DNA of 43,085 nucleotides, taken from positions 1 to 43,085 of the forward strand of contig JBAXPC010000003.1 in the NCBI GenBank assembly GCA_037132395.1, given 5' to 3'. Origin of the DNA: a bacterium (GTDB lineage: Bacteria; Patescibacteriota; Saccharimonadia; CAILAD01; BJGX01). Numbering within the stretch: position 1 is the stretch's first letter; each line of letters starts with the position of its first letter. The translations under genes and the position numbers were made by a program. Positions 29,347 to 34,408 of this stretch are shown here, one piece after another. The notes below the pieces were generated by a model. It did no database searches and was not told the origin of the DNA. It saw nothing but the letters and a program-made list of their open reading frames with translations.

Positions 29347-29949
29347 GTGTTGAAGGCTAGTATGCGCATGGAAAACTCCCTAAGAAGAAGCGGGCAGCTC
29401 TTTGTCTGTGGTATCGATGAAGTTGGCCGCGGAAGTTTGGCTGGGCCACTTGTGGCAGCGGCAGTTGTTTTGCCATCTAGCTGGCGAAAGGCTCTGACGG
29501 ACTCAAAATTATTGTCTGCAGCTAGACGTGAAGAGCTATCAGAATACATCACAGAGAAGTCACTTGGCTATGGCATTGGCTGGGTGGATAATACCGAAGT
29601 AGACTTATTCGGCCTAACTGAAGCAGTGCGGATGGCATACCTTCGGGCCCTAGAAGATTTGGAATGTGAGTTTAGCTCAATTATTATAGACGGTAATTAC
29701 GACTATCTATCCGAATATAAGTTAAGTCAGACAATCGTGAAGGCCGATCAGAAAGTGAGCTGCGTAGCCGCCGCCAGTATTATTGCAAAAGTCGCCCGCG
29801 ATCAGTATATGTTCGCCCAGACCCAACAGTACCCTGGCTATGGTTTTGAGAGTAATGTTGGATATGGCACCAAGAAACACCTAGAAAGTTTGGCCAGAAA
29901 AGGACCTTCAGATTTACACAGAAAAAGTTTTTGTAGGGGGTATTTATGA
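29347..29949 (+). CDS. rnhB: Ribonuclease HII
   Basis: GIDEVGRG.LAGP, DSK.LS, IIDGN, KAD....VAAASIIAKVARD, GYGT..H. Confidence 0.96.
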   Translation: MLKASMRMENSLRRSGQLFVCGIDEVGRGSLAGPLVAAAVVLPSSWRKALTDSKLLSAARREELSEYITEKSLGYGIGWVDNTEVDLFGLTEAVRMAYLRALEDLECEFSSIIIDGNYDYLSEYKLSQTIVKADQKVSCVAAASIIAKVARDQYMFAQTQQYPGYGFESNVGYGTKKHLESLARKGPSDLHRKSFCRGYL

Positions 29950-30296
29950 AAAATACCACCGCGATAGGATCACAGGCTGAAGATTTGGCTGCGCAGTACT
30001 TAATCAGTCAAGGATACAAAATATTGCAACGCAATTTCAAAAACCGCTTTAGTGAGCTAGATATAATCGCTAAAAATACCGAGTACATCTGCTGTGTTGA
30101 GGTGAAATACCGCAACACCGATGATTATGGCGGTGGTCTTGGAGCCATATCGGCCGACAAAAAGAGACGTTTGGCCAGAGGCTTTGAGTACTGGCTTTAC
30201 GAAAACCCACAATATGCAAAACTACAGCCCCGGATCGATGTAATTGCTGTAGGTGGTAATAAGCAGATACAGTTCATAGAAAATGCCATCGAATAG
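29946..30296 (+). CDS. yraN: YraN (UPF0102) family putative endonuclease
   Basis: G..AEDLA..YL...GY.IL.RN......ELDIIA......VEVKYR; canonical position after rnhB. Confidence 0.92.
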   Translation: MKNTTAIGSQAEDLAAQYLISQGYKILQRNFKNRFSELDIIAKNTEYICCVEVKYRNTDDYGGGLGAISADKKRRLARGFEYWLYENPQYAKLQPRIDVIAVGGNKQIQFIENAIE

Positions 30297-30314
30297 CCCC
30301 AGAACTCATGACTG

Positions 30315-30499
30315 ATGTCAAAAGTGCTGGATTCTCATACCGCTTGCTCACCGCCCTGTAAGGCCATAGCTCTAACTCATTTATTCCGGTTAGCCTCATT
30401 GTAGCTACAGCTACAAATCGGCCTGAGCCTCATAAATATAGCGAACTATGACGCCACAAATCAATAAGCCATCAATACGAGCCCTAGCACTCTTGACAT
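30315..30499 (-). ncRNA. Candidate ~185-nt rod-like structured RNA or ssDNA element (6S-RNA-sized, identity unknown)
   Basis: End-to-end imperfect inverted repeat centred at ~30407. About 15 arm differences give G-U pairs on the minus strand versus one giving A-C. Confidence 0.6.
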
Positions 30500-30521
30500 A
30501 AGACTGCTAAAAAAGTACAAT
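30493..30521 (+). promoter_or_regulatory. nusA sigma70 promoter
   Basis: TTGACA-17 nt-TACAAT. Confidence 0.85.
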
Positions 30522-30550
30522 TATGAGTATAGTCTGAAATGAGCGAAACT

Positions 30551-30579
30551 GTCGGTTGCACTGGTGTACCGACTTTTTT
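30551..30579 (+). terminator. Leader terminator/attenuator upstream of nusA
   Basis: GTCGGTTGCA-CTGG-TGTACCGAC followed by TTTTTT, between the promoter and the nusA start. Confidence 0.7.
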
Positions 30580-30634
30580 ATTCAAGCTTTATCTAGGGCT
30601 AACTACAATTTAATAACATTTTAATAGGAGAATT

Positions 30635-31882
30635 ATGCAAAACCAATTTTTATCAGCAATAGAGCAAATATGTGAAGAAAAAGGCATATCGAAAGATATG
30701 GTTATTGAGGCAATCCAAGCCGCAATAATCGCTGCCTACAAAAAAGACTTCGGCGACAAAGAGCAAGAGGTTAGGGTCGAGCTAAACCCCGATAGCGGCG
30801 AGCCAACTATTTTTGTAACCAAGGAAGTTGTTGAGAGTGTCGAAGATGGTCTAATACAAATATCGATAGCTGATGCCAAGAAGCTCAAAAAAGCTAGCGT
30901 CCTTGGAGATATGATTGAGTTTAAGGAAGACAACAAGGAATTCGGACGAGTCGCTGCCCAAACTGCTAAGCAGGTGATTGTCCAGCGAATTCGTGAAGCC
31001 GAGCGAGAAGTCGTATTTAGCGAATTTAGCGGCAAAGAAGGTCTAATCATTAACGCCACTGTTCAAAGATTTGAGAGTGGTAATGTATTTATTGATCTCG
31101 GAAAAGCAACCGGCGTGATGTTCCCCAGCGACCAGATACCTAATGAAAAGTATTATCCCGCCCAAAAGATTAAAGTATTTGTAGTTCGGGTTGAGCAAAC
31201 CAACCGCGGGCCACAAATTGTAGTTAGTCGTACACACCCAGATATGGTTCGAAGATTATTCGAGCTTGAAGTTCCTGAGATAGCCAACGGATCAGTGGAA
31301 ATTGCGGGAATCGCTCGTGAAGCTGGAGCTCGCACCAAGATTGCCGTCAAATCCAATGTCCCAGGAGTAGACCCAGTTGGTACTTTTGTCGGAGGTAGAG
31401 GCACAAGGGTGCAGGCCGTAATGGGAGAGCTCGGTGAAGAAAAAATCGATATTATAGCATTTAGCGATGATCCTAAGGAATACATCACAAATGCCTTGTC
31501 ACCAACTAAAGTAATTAGCGTTAAACTAGATAAGGAAAATAAAAAAGCCGTAGTCAAGGTCCCTGAAGACCAACTGAGTTTGGCAATCGGCAAATCCGGC
31601 CAGAATGTCAGGTTGGCAGCTAAATTAACAGAGTGGAATATTGACATCGATGGTGCCGATGAAGCTGGCGTTGAATCTACTGCAAAAGAGATAGTGCCAG
31701 AGCCCAAGCCCGCCCGAACAGTCGATCTAGAAGATGCCATAATTGCCGCTTCTAATGAAAAAACTGAAGTTAAAGATGGCAAGACTTCAGCTGAGGCCAC
31801 TGAAGTTAAGACAGAATCTGAAAAAAGTATCAAGGAAGCCGTAGAAAAAGAAGAAGCCTTAGAAGATTCAGAAGATAAATAA
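30635..31882 (+). CDS. nusA: Transcription termination factor NusA
   Basis: FGRVAAQTAKQVI.QRIREAER, S1 domain, KH domains (AREAG.RTKIAV, LSLAIGK.GQNVRLAAKLT), acidic tail. Confidence 0.97.
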   Translation: MQNQFLSAIEQICEEKGISKDMVIEAIQAAIIAAYKKDFGDKEQEVRVELNPDSGEPTIFVTKEVVESVEDGLIQISIADAKKLKKASVLGDMIEFKEDNKEFGRVAAQTAKQVIVQRIREAEREVVFSEFSGKEGLIINATVQRFESGNVFIDLGKATGVMFPSDQIPNEKYYPAQKIKVFVVRVEQTNRGPQIVVSRTHPDMVRRLFELEVPEIANGSVEIAGIAREAGARTKIAVKSNVPGVDPVGTFVGGRGTRVQAVMGELGEEKIDIIAFSDDPKEYITNALSPTKVISVKLDKENKKAVVKVPEDQLSLAIGKSGQNVRLAAKLTEWNIDIDGADEAGVESTAKEIVPEPKPARTVDLEDAIIAASNEKTEVKDGKTSAEATEVKTESEKSIKEAVEKEEALEDSEDK

Positions 31883-31930: not shown

Positions 31931-34408
31931 ATGCAAGAAGATTTTTTAAGCCATTTTGATAGATTTACACAGAATGCTAAAAAAAGCCTGGAGAGTGCAG
32001 GCCTTCTTGCAATTAATATGGGGTCGAGCTACATAGGCACCGAACACTTGCTGCTAGGAATGCTTAAAGTGCAGGGTTCGATAGGAGCTCGCCTACTATC
32101 TGACATGGGCGTCAGAATTGATAACGTCCCCGTTTATGGCAATCATAATATCCAGACCTCTACACCGTCGGGGAGTATTGAGCTATCTGAGACAGCCAAA
32201 CAAACCATTACATCTGCACTTAGAGTTGCACAGCAAAACGGCCAACCCTACGCTGGTACGGAGCATTTATTAATTGCAATTCTCGGGCAAAAAAATTCTC
32301 GGGCAATATCTATTTTAAAAGACATGCAGGTCGATCCGGTAGCAGTTAGAGACGAGCTAGAAAAGTACCTGGACTCTCAACCTTCTCAAGTCGAGATACC
32401 ACAAGGTGGACCAGGCCGTAAGAATTCTAAACAGTCTAAAACACCTGCACTTGATCACTTCGGTATAGACTTGACAGCTAAGGCTACAAAAGATTTGCTA
32501 GATCCTGTAATCGGTCGAGAAACCCAAATCGATAGGATGATTCAAATTTTAAACCGTCGGAGCAAAAATAATCCTGTTCTGATTGGCGAGCCTGGAGTTG
32601 GTAAAACAGCGATAGTAGAAGGACTAGCTAAAAGAATTGTCGACGAGAGAGTCCCAGAGATGCTACTAGGTAAGAGACTAATGATGCTTGATATGGCATC
32701 TGTTATTGCAGGGACTAAGTTCAGGGGCGAATTCGAAGAAAGACTCAAAAAGATAATTGACGAGGTAACTGCTTCGCCAGATGTAATATTATTCATTGAC
32801 GAGCTTCATAATGTAGTCGGAGCCGGAAGTGCCGAAGGGGCAATTGATGCTGCGAACATCCTAAAACCAGCCTTGTCGCGCGGGGAAGTACAGACTATTG
32901 GTGCTACCACTCTTGAAGAGTACAGAAAGCACATCGAAAAAGATGCTGCACTAGAACGGCGCTTTCAGCCAATTATAGTTCCAGAAGCTACAGTCGATGA
33001 AACTATCGAGGTGCTCAAGGGCCTGCGACCAAGGTATGAAAAATTCCACAGCGTTAAGATTACTGATGAGGCAATCGAAGAGGCTGCTAAATTAGCAAAG
33101 CGCTATATAGCGGACAGGTTTTTGCCAGACAAAGCCATAGACCTAATCGATGAAGCATCATCACGGGCCAGAATAACCCGTTCAAGTACCGACGGACGAG
33201 GCAAGCGCCTATCCAAACAGCTCGAACAAAAGTTAATCCAAATTGATGATGCTGTATATAACCAAGATTTTGAGCAAGCTGCTCGATTAAAATCTGAAGC
33301 CAGCATTATAGAAAAAAAACTAAATGAAGTGCAGGCTGACTCTAAAAACAATGATAAGGTCGAAGTTACGATTGAGGACATTACCAAGGTGGTGGCTCAA
33401 TCTACAGGAATCCCCGTTGAAAAATTAGCTAAGTTTGAGACTGATAGTCTTAAGAAACTAGAGCAGACATTAAAACTCAAGATCATCGGACAAGACAATG
33501 CTGTCGATGTTATTGCCAAGGCTATCCGCCGTAGTCGCACAGGCATTGCTGACCAAAAGAAACCCATCGGGTCATTTATGTTTTTAGGACCTACCGGGGT
33601 AGGCAAAACCGAACTCGCTCGTGTACTTTCAGAAGAACTCTTTAATGACGCAGACTCGATTATTAAGGTTGATATGAGTGAGTTTATGGAAAAACATAAT
33701 GTCTCGCGCTTAGTCGGAGCTCCCGCAGGGTACGTGGGCTACGAAGATGCCGGCCAGCTGACAGAAAAAGTTCGTCGCAAGCCATACAGCTTAATATTAT
33801 TTGATGAAATCGAAAAGGCCCATCCTGATATATTTAATATTTTGCTTCAGATTCTAGAGGATGGTATCTTGACTGACGCCAAGGGCAAAAAAGTAGATTT
33901 TAGCAACACAATTATAATTATGACAAGCAATGTTGGTGCTAGGGTTTTGGCGAAGGAAGCTGAAATCGGATTTGCGACCGACACCCCCAAAGAACAAAGA
34001 AAGCTAGACGAAATACACGTACAGATGACAGAAAAAGTTACCAGTGAACTGAAAAAACAATTTCGTCCAGAATTTTTGAACCGCATTGATCATGTTGTGG
34101 TATTTAAAGCACTCTCGAAGTTAGATATCGAAAAGATTGCTGAGCTCCAGCTCAAAGATCTTGCTAAAAGACTTGAAGAAAAAGAAGTTATCCTAAAGTT
34201 TAAGCCAAATGTACGAGTCTTGCTGGTAGAAAAAGGCTATGATATCGAAAACGGAGCTCGCCCCATGAAGAGAGCGGTACAAAGATTAATAGAGGATAAG
34301 CTTGCTAGCGGCATAATTACAGAGATGATCAAGCCAGGCGATATCGTAGAAATTAGTGCTAAAGATGGTGAGGTTGATCTAAATATCAAGGTCGGTGCAA
34401 CAGTATAG
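31931..34408 (+). CDS. clpC: ATP-dependent Clp protease ATPase ClpC
   Basis: Clp-N repeats, two AAA+ modules ([16 protein letters not shown]), UVR middle domain, IGF loop. Confidence 0.94.

Follow-up and report, generated by a model that had tools for sequence, protein, structure and literature searches.

The present work concerns a rod-like hairpin found between the genes yraN and nusA of a small Saccharibacteria-like genome (G000), in the window, that is the whole stretch of 43,085 nucleotides (nt) that was analysed (contig JBAXPC010000003.1 of assembly GCA_037132395.1), whose coordinates are used throughout. The minus strand of this element, at positions 30315-30499, folds as a single RNA-type rod much better than the plus strand, its sequence is conserved among the few species that carry it, and it originated as an insertion which has since been partly lost in one lineage. 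We tentatively favour, with a little less than even confidence, the reading that the hairpin is a young, single-copy, lineage-specific non-coding RNA of the minus strand, which would be transcribed from the symmetric -10/CIRCE (controlling inverted repeat of chaperone expression) region of the nusA promoter and would have been born by fold-back inverted duplication. An earlier note on this DNA, made from its letters alone, had listed a new non-coding RNA among several options, and we still prefer this option. We would class the element as a candidate non-coding RNA of a known general kind, with a very narrow distribution.

The element is a single imperfect inverted repeat spanning 30315-30499, from ATGTCAAAAGTGCTGG at the left end (30315-30330) to CTAGCACTCTTGACAT at the right end (30484-30499), with the apex TTGTAGC (30399-30405)-TACA-GCTACAA (30410-30416); repeat, coordinates, ends and apex are all as the earlier note described them. 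A repeat search gave 88% complementarity for the outer arms (30312-30328 and 30486-30502). Four hairpin sequences were available, those of G000, of two related genomes (G031 and G027) and of one metagenome contig (L035). In RNA folds and in the consensus structure, the minus strand of 30315-30499 forms the core of the rod, made of helices 2 to 5: 30499-30473 pairs with 30342-30315, 30469-30432 with 30384-30346, 30429-30420 with 30395-30388, and 30416-30410 with 30405-30399. The last of these helices is an apical stem of 7 bp closed by a 4-nt loop (30399-30416, minus strand), and it holds the sole compensatory pair, U-A replaced by C-G in G027 (columns 95/112). In the relatives the full extent of the rod is 30299-30510 on the minus strand, including an outer helix 1 (30510-30500 with 30309-30299) that has decayed in G000, where 2 of its 10 pairs are broken, and is intact in the other three hairpin sequences. 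The largest interruptions of the minimum-energy and consensus folds are loops of 3x3 and 2x3 near the apex; the internal loop of about 9x8 nt proposed there by the earlier note is mostly resolved by the fold, leaving loops of 2x3, 2x0 and 3x3.

The two strands differ strongly in their folding. When the stretch 30305-30510 was folded with RNA parameters and compared with 200 dinucleotide shuffles, the minus strand formed one rod of -88.3 kcal/mol (z -7.58) and the plus strand reached -50.7 kcal/mol (z -3.17), with no shuffle out of 200 equalling either value. The gap is alike in two other genomes, at -101.8 and -96.6 for the minus strand versus -57.3 and -54.4 for the plus strand. In the minimum-energy folds of the 199-nt core, 76 pairs including 17 G·U are formed on the minus strand and 58 pairs including 2 G·U on the plus strand; across the folds of three genomes, G·U pairs number 13-17 on the minus strand versus 2 on the plus strand. 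With DNA parameters the minus strand yields -29.5 kcal/mol (z -2.6, equalled by 2 of 200 shuffles) and the plus strand -20.0 kcal/mol (z -0.9). Since folding is far better with RNA than with DNA parameters, the design of the hairpin fits RNA better than single-stranded DNA. Other long rods were sought through an ungapped inverted-repeat scan of all contigs, followed by 250-nt folds around the 16 best repeats; among these, only the present locus folds as a single hairpin over 250 nt (-96.7 versus -58.3 kcal/mol).

The polarity of the wobble pairs points to the same strand. For each sequence 96 opposed positions were counted, corresponding to 84 consensus pairs and 12 symmetric-loop positions: G000 has 64 Watson-Crick, 18 G·U, 2 A·C and 12 other, and G031, the best relative, has 72, 15, 1 and 8, respectively, the remaining mismatches being mostly G·A or A·G. 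The G·U:A·C ratios in the four hairpin sequences are 18:2, 15:1, 14:2 and 15:2, where G·U counting is slightly favoured by the structure having been predicted on the minus strand; the earlier note had arrived by hand alignment at an asymmetry of about 15:1. The four-fold sites of the four flanking genes, read on the plus strand, are C-rich and G-poor (A205 G76 T199 C183), and by our own estimate this composition predicts a polarity of only about 1.7:1. A polarity of 15/16 has a P of 0.006 under this bias and of 0.0003 at 1:1; the values for the four sequences are 0.006-0.03 under the bias and 0.0002-0.002 at 1:1, the sequences being related and not amounting to four independent tests. The strand asymmetry is real and exceeds the local mutation bias.

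Moreover, the hairpin evolves slowly. It differs at 9 of 168 positions between G000 and G031, versus 79 of 203 four-fold sites of the flanking genes; the corresponding figures are 19/168 versus 90/197 for G000 and G027, and 10/168 versus 66/200 for G031 and G027. The hairpin is thus slower than the four-fold sites by 4-7 times (Fisher p <= 3e-11 in every pair) and is kept across a four-fold-site divergence of about 40%. Directly to its left, the spacer 30297-30314 shows 4 differences in 18 positions plus an 11-nt indel, and at third positions of the yraN 3' end G000 is only 63-68% identical to G031 and G027; the decayed spacer speaks against the entire block having been transferred recently. 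Among the 84 pairs, 65 are invariant; the 19 variable ones comprise 11 altered on one side by way of a wobble, 7 broken pairs and a single compensatory one, and in G027 they divide into 8 kept versus 1 broken. Pairing is still possible at 86-87 of the 96 opposed positions in G031 and the metagenome copy (MG35), and at 82-85 in G000 and G027. Polarity beyond bias, conservation and an RNA-type fold together support the suggestion, already made in the earlier note, of selection on the folding of one strand.

The distribution of the element is very narrow. BLAST searches of 60 species genomes of the order found it at full length in three, G000, G031 (93-94% identity) and G027 (88-89%). It is single-copy in G000 (658,591 bases, 97% complete), the runner-up there being a 25-nt match to another CIRCE, and likewise single-copy in G031 and G027; the metagenome contig bears a G031-like copy. 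The locus is also contained in 17 DNA sequencing runs. A 20-mer scan of 185,579 species genomes returned only the records of G027 and G031 plus one chance match, and no match to the hairpin was found in viral contigs, phage records or plasmid records. The chance match consists of the 20-mer ATAGCTCTAACTCATTTATT, which occurs once in a contig of a Nitrosopumilaceae archaeon bin (locus L068) between unrelated flanks.

Comparison with the rest of the family reveals how the element arose. Across the family the yraN stop normally abuts or overlaps the CIRCE, and in most genomes it lies 129-205 nt from the nusA ATG, versus 338-349 nt in the three hairpin bearers; the short distance across the family indicates that the hairpin is a derived insertion. 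The left border in G031, G027 and L035 is TTAGCACTCTTGAC-TGAT-GTCAAAAGTGCTAG, in which the right end is repeated first in direct and immediately afterwards in inverse orientation. In the same three sequences an 18-nt direct repeat, AGCCYTAGCACTCTTGAC, flanks the insert, and the end of the left arm is the inverse of this repeat. Among 401 genomes of the class, this junction pattern was found in G031 and G027 only. The resulting order, 'end of A, inverted A, apex, A', is what a fold-back inverted duplication characteristically leaves behind. A derivation of the arms from the 3' end of yraN was rejected, the local alignments being no better than shuffles (z <= 1.2; 67-223 of 500 as good).

The loss of the element is equally visible. 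In two relatives, G029 and G030, only 47-73 nt beside the CIRCE remain; the left arm and the apex are gone, with a junction at a 3-nt microhomology directly after the stop codon, and the right-arm portion that persists (30438-30483) is 96% and 94% identical over 47 nt. In the trees built from the two flanks, G029 groups with G031 as its sister within the hairpin clade (support 84/94 and 86/96), so that its loss is a secondary deletion and the hairpin is ancestral to the clade. For the nearest relative of G000, G028 (NusA 99%), the contig starts only at the equivalent of window position 30524, and the assembly yielded no rnhB-yraN. G030 (locus L042) is a mosaic, with a nusA 98% identical to that of G026 (L044), and a yraN and surviving right arm like those of G029 (L038) and G031, a pattern that, by these similarities, shows homologous exchange between species at exactly the yraN-nusA locus. 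Within the right arm, CCACAAATCAATAAGCCATCAATA (30451-30474) does not vary among the six sequences that carry it, two of them from genomes without the opposite arm. It contains two ATCAATA repeats, spaced 11 nt apart and located about -54 to -77 relative to the nusA start, and could by itself be a DNA site to which a protein binds.

The right foot of the rod lies in regulatory DNA of nusA. The nusA promoter TTGACA-17-TACAAT (30493-30521, plus strand) matches the consensus at 11 of 12 positions and is conserved in relatives; its -35 hexamer, at 30493-30498, had been rightly placed at the right end of the hairpin by the earlier note. This hexamer falls in the spacer of a CIRCE-like HrcA operator, CTAGCACTC-TTGACATAA-GACTGCTAA (30484-30510), which has 2 mismatches to the CIRCE consensus, the inverted repeat TTAGCACTC-N9-GAGTGCTAA. 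Among 30 family loci (L036-L065), a CIRCE with TTGACA (<=3 mismatches) was found upstream of nusA in 25; three lack it and two have too little upstream DNA. What the earlier note missed is that the right end is, as judged by these sites, a family-conserved CIRCE/HrcA operator, and that the element is a young insertion already partly deleted in one sister species. The likeness to a CIRCE/HrcA operator, comprising the near-consensus right foot, its family-wide position and the -35 in the spacer, is confined to the basal part of the rod: the operator is a 27-bp DNA site, and nothing comparable to the other ~160 nt is present at the remaining CIRCEs of G000.

As the rod foot consists of the CIRCE and the -35, a transcript that takes in the entire rod can begin only rightwards of 30510, within the nusA promoter. 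Warman et al. (2021) reportedly described divergent non-coding transcripts from bidirectional bacterial promoters. According to PMC10268837, bacterial -10 elements are nearly symmetric and often bidirectional, with starts 18 bp apart. The TACAAT hexamer (30516-30521) indeed carries the reciprocal -11A/-7T on the opposite strand (AATTGT). Candidate -10 elements for a minus-strand transcript are found at 30517-30531, namely this AATTGT, CATAAT (30525-30520) and TATACT (30531-30526). A minus-strand start is predicted at about 30507-30519 and, by the 18-bp rule, near 30510, which is the first paired base of the rod. A small protein encoded in the hairpin was considered and rejected: the only open reading frame of at least 40 amino acids (minus strand, 30274-30399) loses its ATG in G031 and G027.

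From these elements we propose the following course of events. In the ancestor of a few species of one genus of Saccharibacteria/Patescibacteria, an insert of about 200 nt arose between the yraN stop and the nusA-clp CIRCE, through a fold-back inverted duplication at the upstream edge of the promoter. The sequence has since been maintained for a minus-strand rod of ~84-96 pairs, rich in G·U and G·A, and not for the plus strand. The minus-strand RNA would start within ~30507-30519, in the nearly symmetric -10 region of the nusA promoter; its first nucleotides would be the CIRCE, and HrcA would gate its synthesis together with that of nusA, upon de-repression of nusA-clp. The transcript would comprise little beyond the rod, which might keep this divergent RNA compact, long-lived, and from running antisense into yraN-rnhB, and which could possibly serve as a double-stranded decoy for a protein that binds double-stranded RNA, e.g. 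RNase III. We regard as conceivable, and on the whole doubtful, this complete picture of a non-coding RNA gene soon after its birth, with an HrcA-gated bidirectional promoter and a double-stranded rod of ~95 bp that selection has kept on one strand only in a lineage with reduced genomes, acting as a heat-inducible decoy or insulator and already discarded in one sister species.

Several observations weigh against a minus-strand RNA. The minus-strand -10 elements are weak and none is kept in all four hairpin sequences: CATAAT becomes CGTAAT in G027, and TATACT, which has a poor -35 (CCGACA), becomes TATGCT in G031 and in the metagenome contig, i.e. in 2 of 4. Neither a good minus-strand -35 nor a minus-strand terminator was found in a promoter/terminator scan. 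Contigs assembled from three RNA libraries (4-7% of sampled words), of a G027-like relative, cover the region from 30477, 30546 or 30557 to about 30714 and parts of nusA, and none lies on 30301-30476; these contigs show neither strand nor ends and do not demonstrate transcription of the hairpin. A DNA run (X4) likewise left 30301-30391 without a contig, as is expected of assemblers at inverted repeats, and because contigs cannot show strand or ends, the coverage by RNA libraries decides nothing either way. Furthermore, the right arm is conserved in genomes that lack the partner arm; there the minus strand of the surviving arm has a z of only -1.6 to -2.9, and no alternative pairing partner was found for it in these hairpin-less relatives. 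At least that portion may therefore serve as a DNA site.

Further contrary points are shared with the main rival, according to which the hairpin is a functionless by-product, namely a slowly decaying fold-back palindrome whose polarity results from mutation bias and chance, and whose conservation results from linkage to the promoter and leader or from past recombination. The hairpin is limited to 3 of 60 genomes of the order and one metagenome contig, and it is dispensable, G029 having deleted the left arm and apex and the same allele being present in G030, where the locus has also recombined. Of the 7 pair-breaking changes, 6 are found in the copy of G000, whose fold is the weakest among the three genomes. 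Covariation is not significant: with four near-identical sequences and one compensatory pair, 103 of 500 shuffles reach the observed score. The excess of C over G at plus-strand four-fold sites runs in the very direction of the wobble polarity. Finally, third positions of nusA codons 1-50 are themselves unusually similar (78-84%), and compared with these the hairpin is significantly slower in only two of three pairs (p 0.001, 0.46 and 0.005). Nevertheless, the bias predicts a polarity of about 1.7:1 and not 15:1, and the hairpin is far less divergent than the four-fold sites, whereas the adjoining spacer and the yraN 3' end have diverged. In addition, a neutral palindrome at ~40% divergence should have lost most of its pairing, whereas 82-87 of 96 positions still pair. 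We consider the decaying palindrome an unlikely explanation, though the most serious competitor of the minus-strand RNA.

It is also conceivable, though improbable, that the element acts on the plus strand, as a 3'-end structure of the rnhB-yraN transcript (terminator, insulator or stabiliser) that would block read-through into the HrcA-controlled nusA promoter. The hairpin begins 18 nt past the yraN stop, an ordinary terminator with a stem and a T-run occupies this position in genera where another gene precedes nusA, and folding of the plus strand does surpass that of shuffled sequences (z -3.2). Such a role would, however, call for the opposite wobble polarity to that observed, with 2 G·U on the plus strand versus 13-17 on the minus strand, and most relatives with yraN upstream have no such structure, their yraN stop abutting the CIRCE. 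A scan of 30100-30800 yielded no terminator-like site, and the plus strand past the stem reads ...TTGACATAAGACTGCTAAAAAAG, with no T-run; an intrinsic terminator of yraN was rejected on the missing T-run and on the polarity being the wrong way round.

A single-stranded DNA element (recombination site, single-strand origin or transposon end), or what is left of a mobile element of the foldback type such as a miniature inverted-repeat transposable element (MITE), is very improbable. Strand-specific imperfect hairpins are typical of single-stranded DNA sites, and the 18-nt direct repeat around the insert in G031, G027 and the metagenome contig resembles a target duplication. However, the end of the left arm is the inverse of this 'duplication', which fits a fold-back junction better than a transposon end. 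The weak fold with DNA parameters makes the single-stranded DNA option of the earlier note a poor fit, and the many dispersed copies that would have made the element a MITE are lacking: the hairpin is single-copy in every bearer genome and has no relative at other loci, the 20-mer scan gave two known relatives and a chance match, viral, phage and plasmid sequences gave nothing, and the adjoining genes include no transposase or integrase. ERIC, Correia and other MITE-like elements are imperfect-palindrome intergenic repeats that fold as RNA and form dispersed multi-copy families. The present element shares with them the intergenic position, the imperfect palindrome 100-200 nt in length and the capacity for a long RNA hairpin, and departs from them in being single-copy.

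A divergent 6S RNA, suggested in the earlier note on account of its ~190-nt rod shape, is scarcely credible and, as far as the sequence can tell, refuted: the Rfam 6S model RF00013 has no match over the hairpin at E<=10 (cmscan of 29900-30900, where the only match is an unrelated one of 13.5 bits at 30091-30198), the minimum-energy and consensus folds have no large central bubble between closing and terminal stems, as the earlier note had itself remarked, the hairpin is missing from 57 of 60 genomes of the order, and the genome has a canonical 6S RNA of its own. The likeness is that of a strand-specific, intergenic, non-coding rod of similar size. The RF00013 search of the whole G000 genome was empty, as it was in the genus (0/6), which at first sight favoured this possibility. 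Of the 60 genomes of the order, 18 have a canonical 6S RNA at another locus, with a score above the cut-off in 7, and this locus in the relatives lies between an M50-type peptidase gene and a gene of 185 amino acids. In G000 synteny leads to C4:15610-15780 (plus strand; positions 211-381 of L074), where the match is full-length, with 38.8 bits and an E of 2.3e-6; this score is below the Rfam cut-off of 46.4, and the site had been overlooked by the whole-genome search. Signal recognition particle (SRP) RNA models gave no match over the hairpin. The sole SRP RNA candidate in G000 is at C15:14364-14451 (RF00169, 14 bits, E 2.2), and RF01854 gave nothing; apparently the Rfam models do not capture the SRP RNA of this lineage. 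The literature searched, on 6S RNA in the candidate phyla radiation and on CIRCE, HrcA and nusA, held no description of the element or of the nusA arrangement.

The closest parallels to a minus-strand RNA born at this locus come from two other systems. Birth by inverted duplication has been proposed for plant microRNA genes; here too the layout implies that one arm was copied from the other, and the rod is kept at the RNA level with G·U pairs, whereas the host is a bacterium without RNA interference and the source is a promoter-upstream region, not a target gene. The divergent transcripts of bidirectional promoters, as presented in PMC10268837, have in common with the predicted RNA the reciprocal -11A/-7T at the nusA -10, a leftward start at the foot of the hairpin and an antisense direction towards the neighbouring gene. 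Those transcripts are usually unstructured by-products, whereas the first 200 nt of the transcript predicted here are a conserved rod.

If the minus-strand RNA exists, it would provide a dated example of the birth of a bacterial structured RNA, by local inverted duplication beside a two-way promoter, with ancestral, intact and partly deleted states all visible in sister species and selection readable from the G·U polarity. If the rod is merely a decaying palindrome, it would be a caution that skewed genomes can yield strand-asymmetric folding energies. The interest of the hairpin lies mainly in this visible birth and loss. For the annotation of the candidate phyla radiation, it also follows that the rod is not their 6S RNA, and that the real 6S RNA of the genus sits just under the Rfam cut-off and was found only by synteny.

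The genes around the hairpin were confirmed by Pfam. Upstream are the RNase HII gene rnhB (29347-29946) and yraN (UPF0102; 29946-30296, plus strand, Pfam over 29946-30293), whose stop codon abuts the insertion; downstream are nusA (30635-31882, plus strand, Pfam over 30635-31879) and a gene for a Clp-type AAA+ chaperone (31931-34408, Pfam over 31931-34405). Other CIRCE-like sites of G000 precede groES-groEL and hrcA-grpE-dnaK, operons in which Pfam confirms Cpn10, Cpn60, HrcA, GrpE and HSP70. On the basis of its family-wide CIRCE, nusA-clp, which also has a conserved terminator in its leader, appears to belong to the heat-shock regulon in this family of Saccharibacteria, a finding of value in itself.

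Three further observations concern the surroundings of the element and the genome at large. In G012 (locus L063), from another genus, a G+C-rich hairpin-forming insert of ~100 nt lies between the yraN stop and the CIRCE, with a sequence unrelated to that of the hairpin. In G000, stretches near C52 ~1824, C24 ~5715 and C2 21100-21800 have one strand that folds much better than the other (among them, over 250 nt, -88.5 versus -63.3 and -67.1 versus -37.3 kcal/mol); these may be further structured RNAs, or merely G+U-rich antisense strands. Finally, the nusA leader (30528-30634) opens with a family-wide ATAGTYTG motif, has no match in Rfam, and contains, outside the hairpin RNA, a terminator-like hairpin GTCGGT...ACCGAC followed by TTTTTTATT (30546-30582, plus strand). 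This leader hairpin is conserved across genera, with stem changes that keep the pairing, and its features suggest that it is likely an attenuator, possibly one through which NusA regulates its own synthesis.

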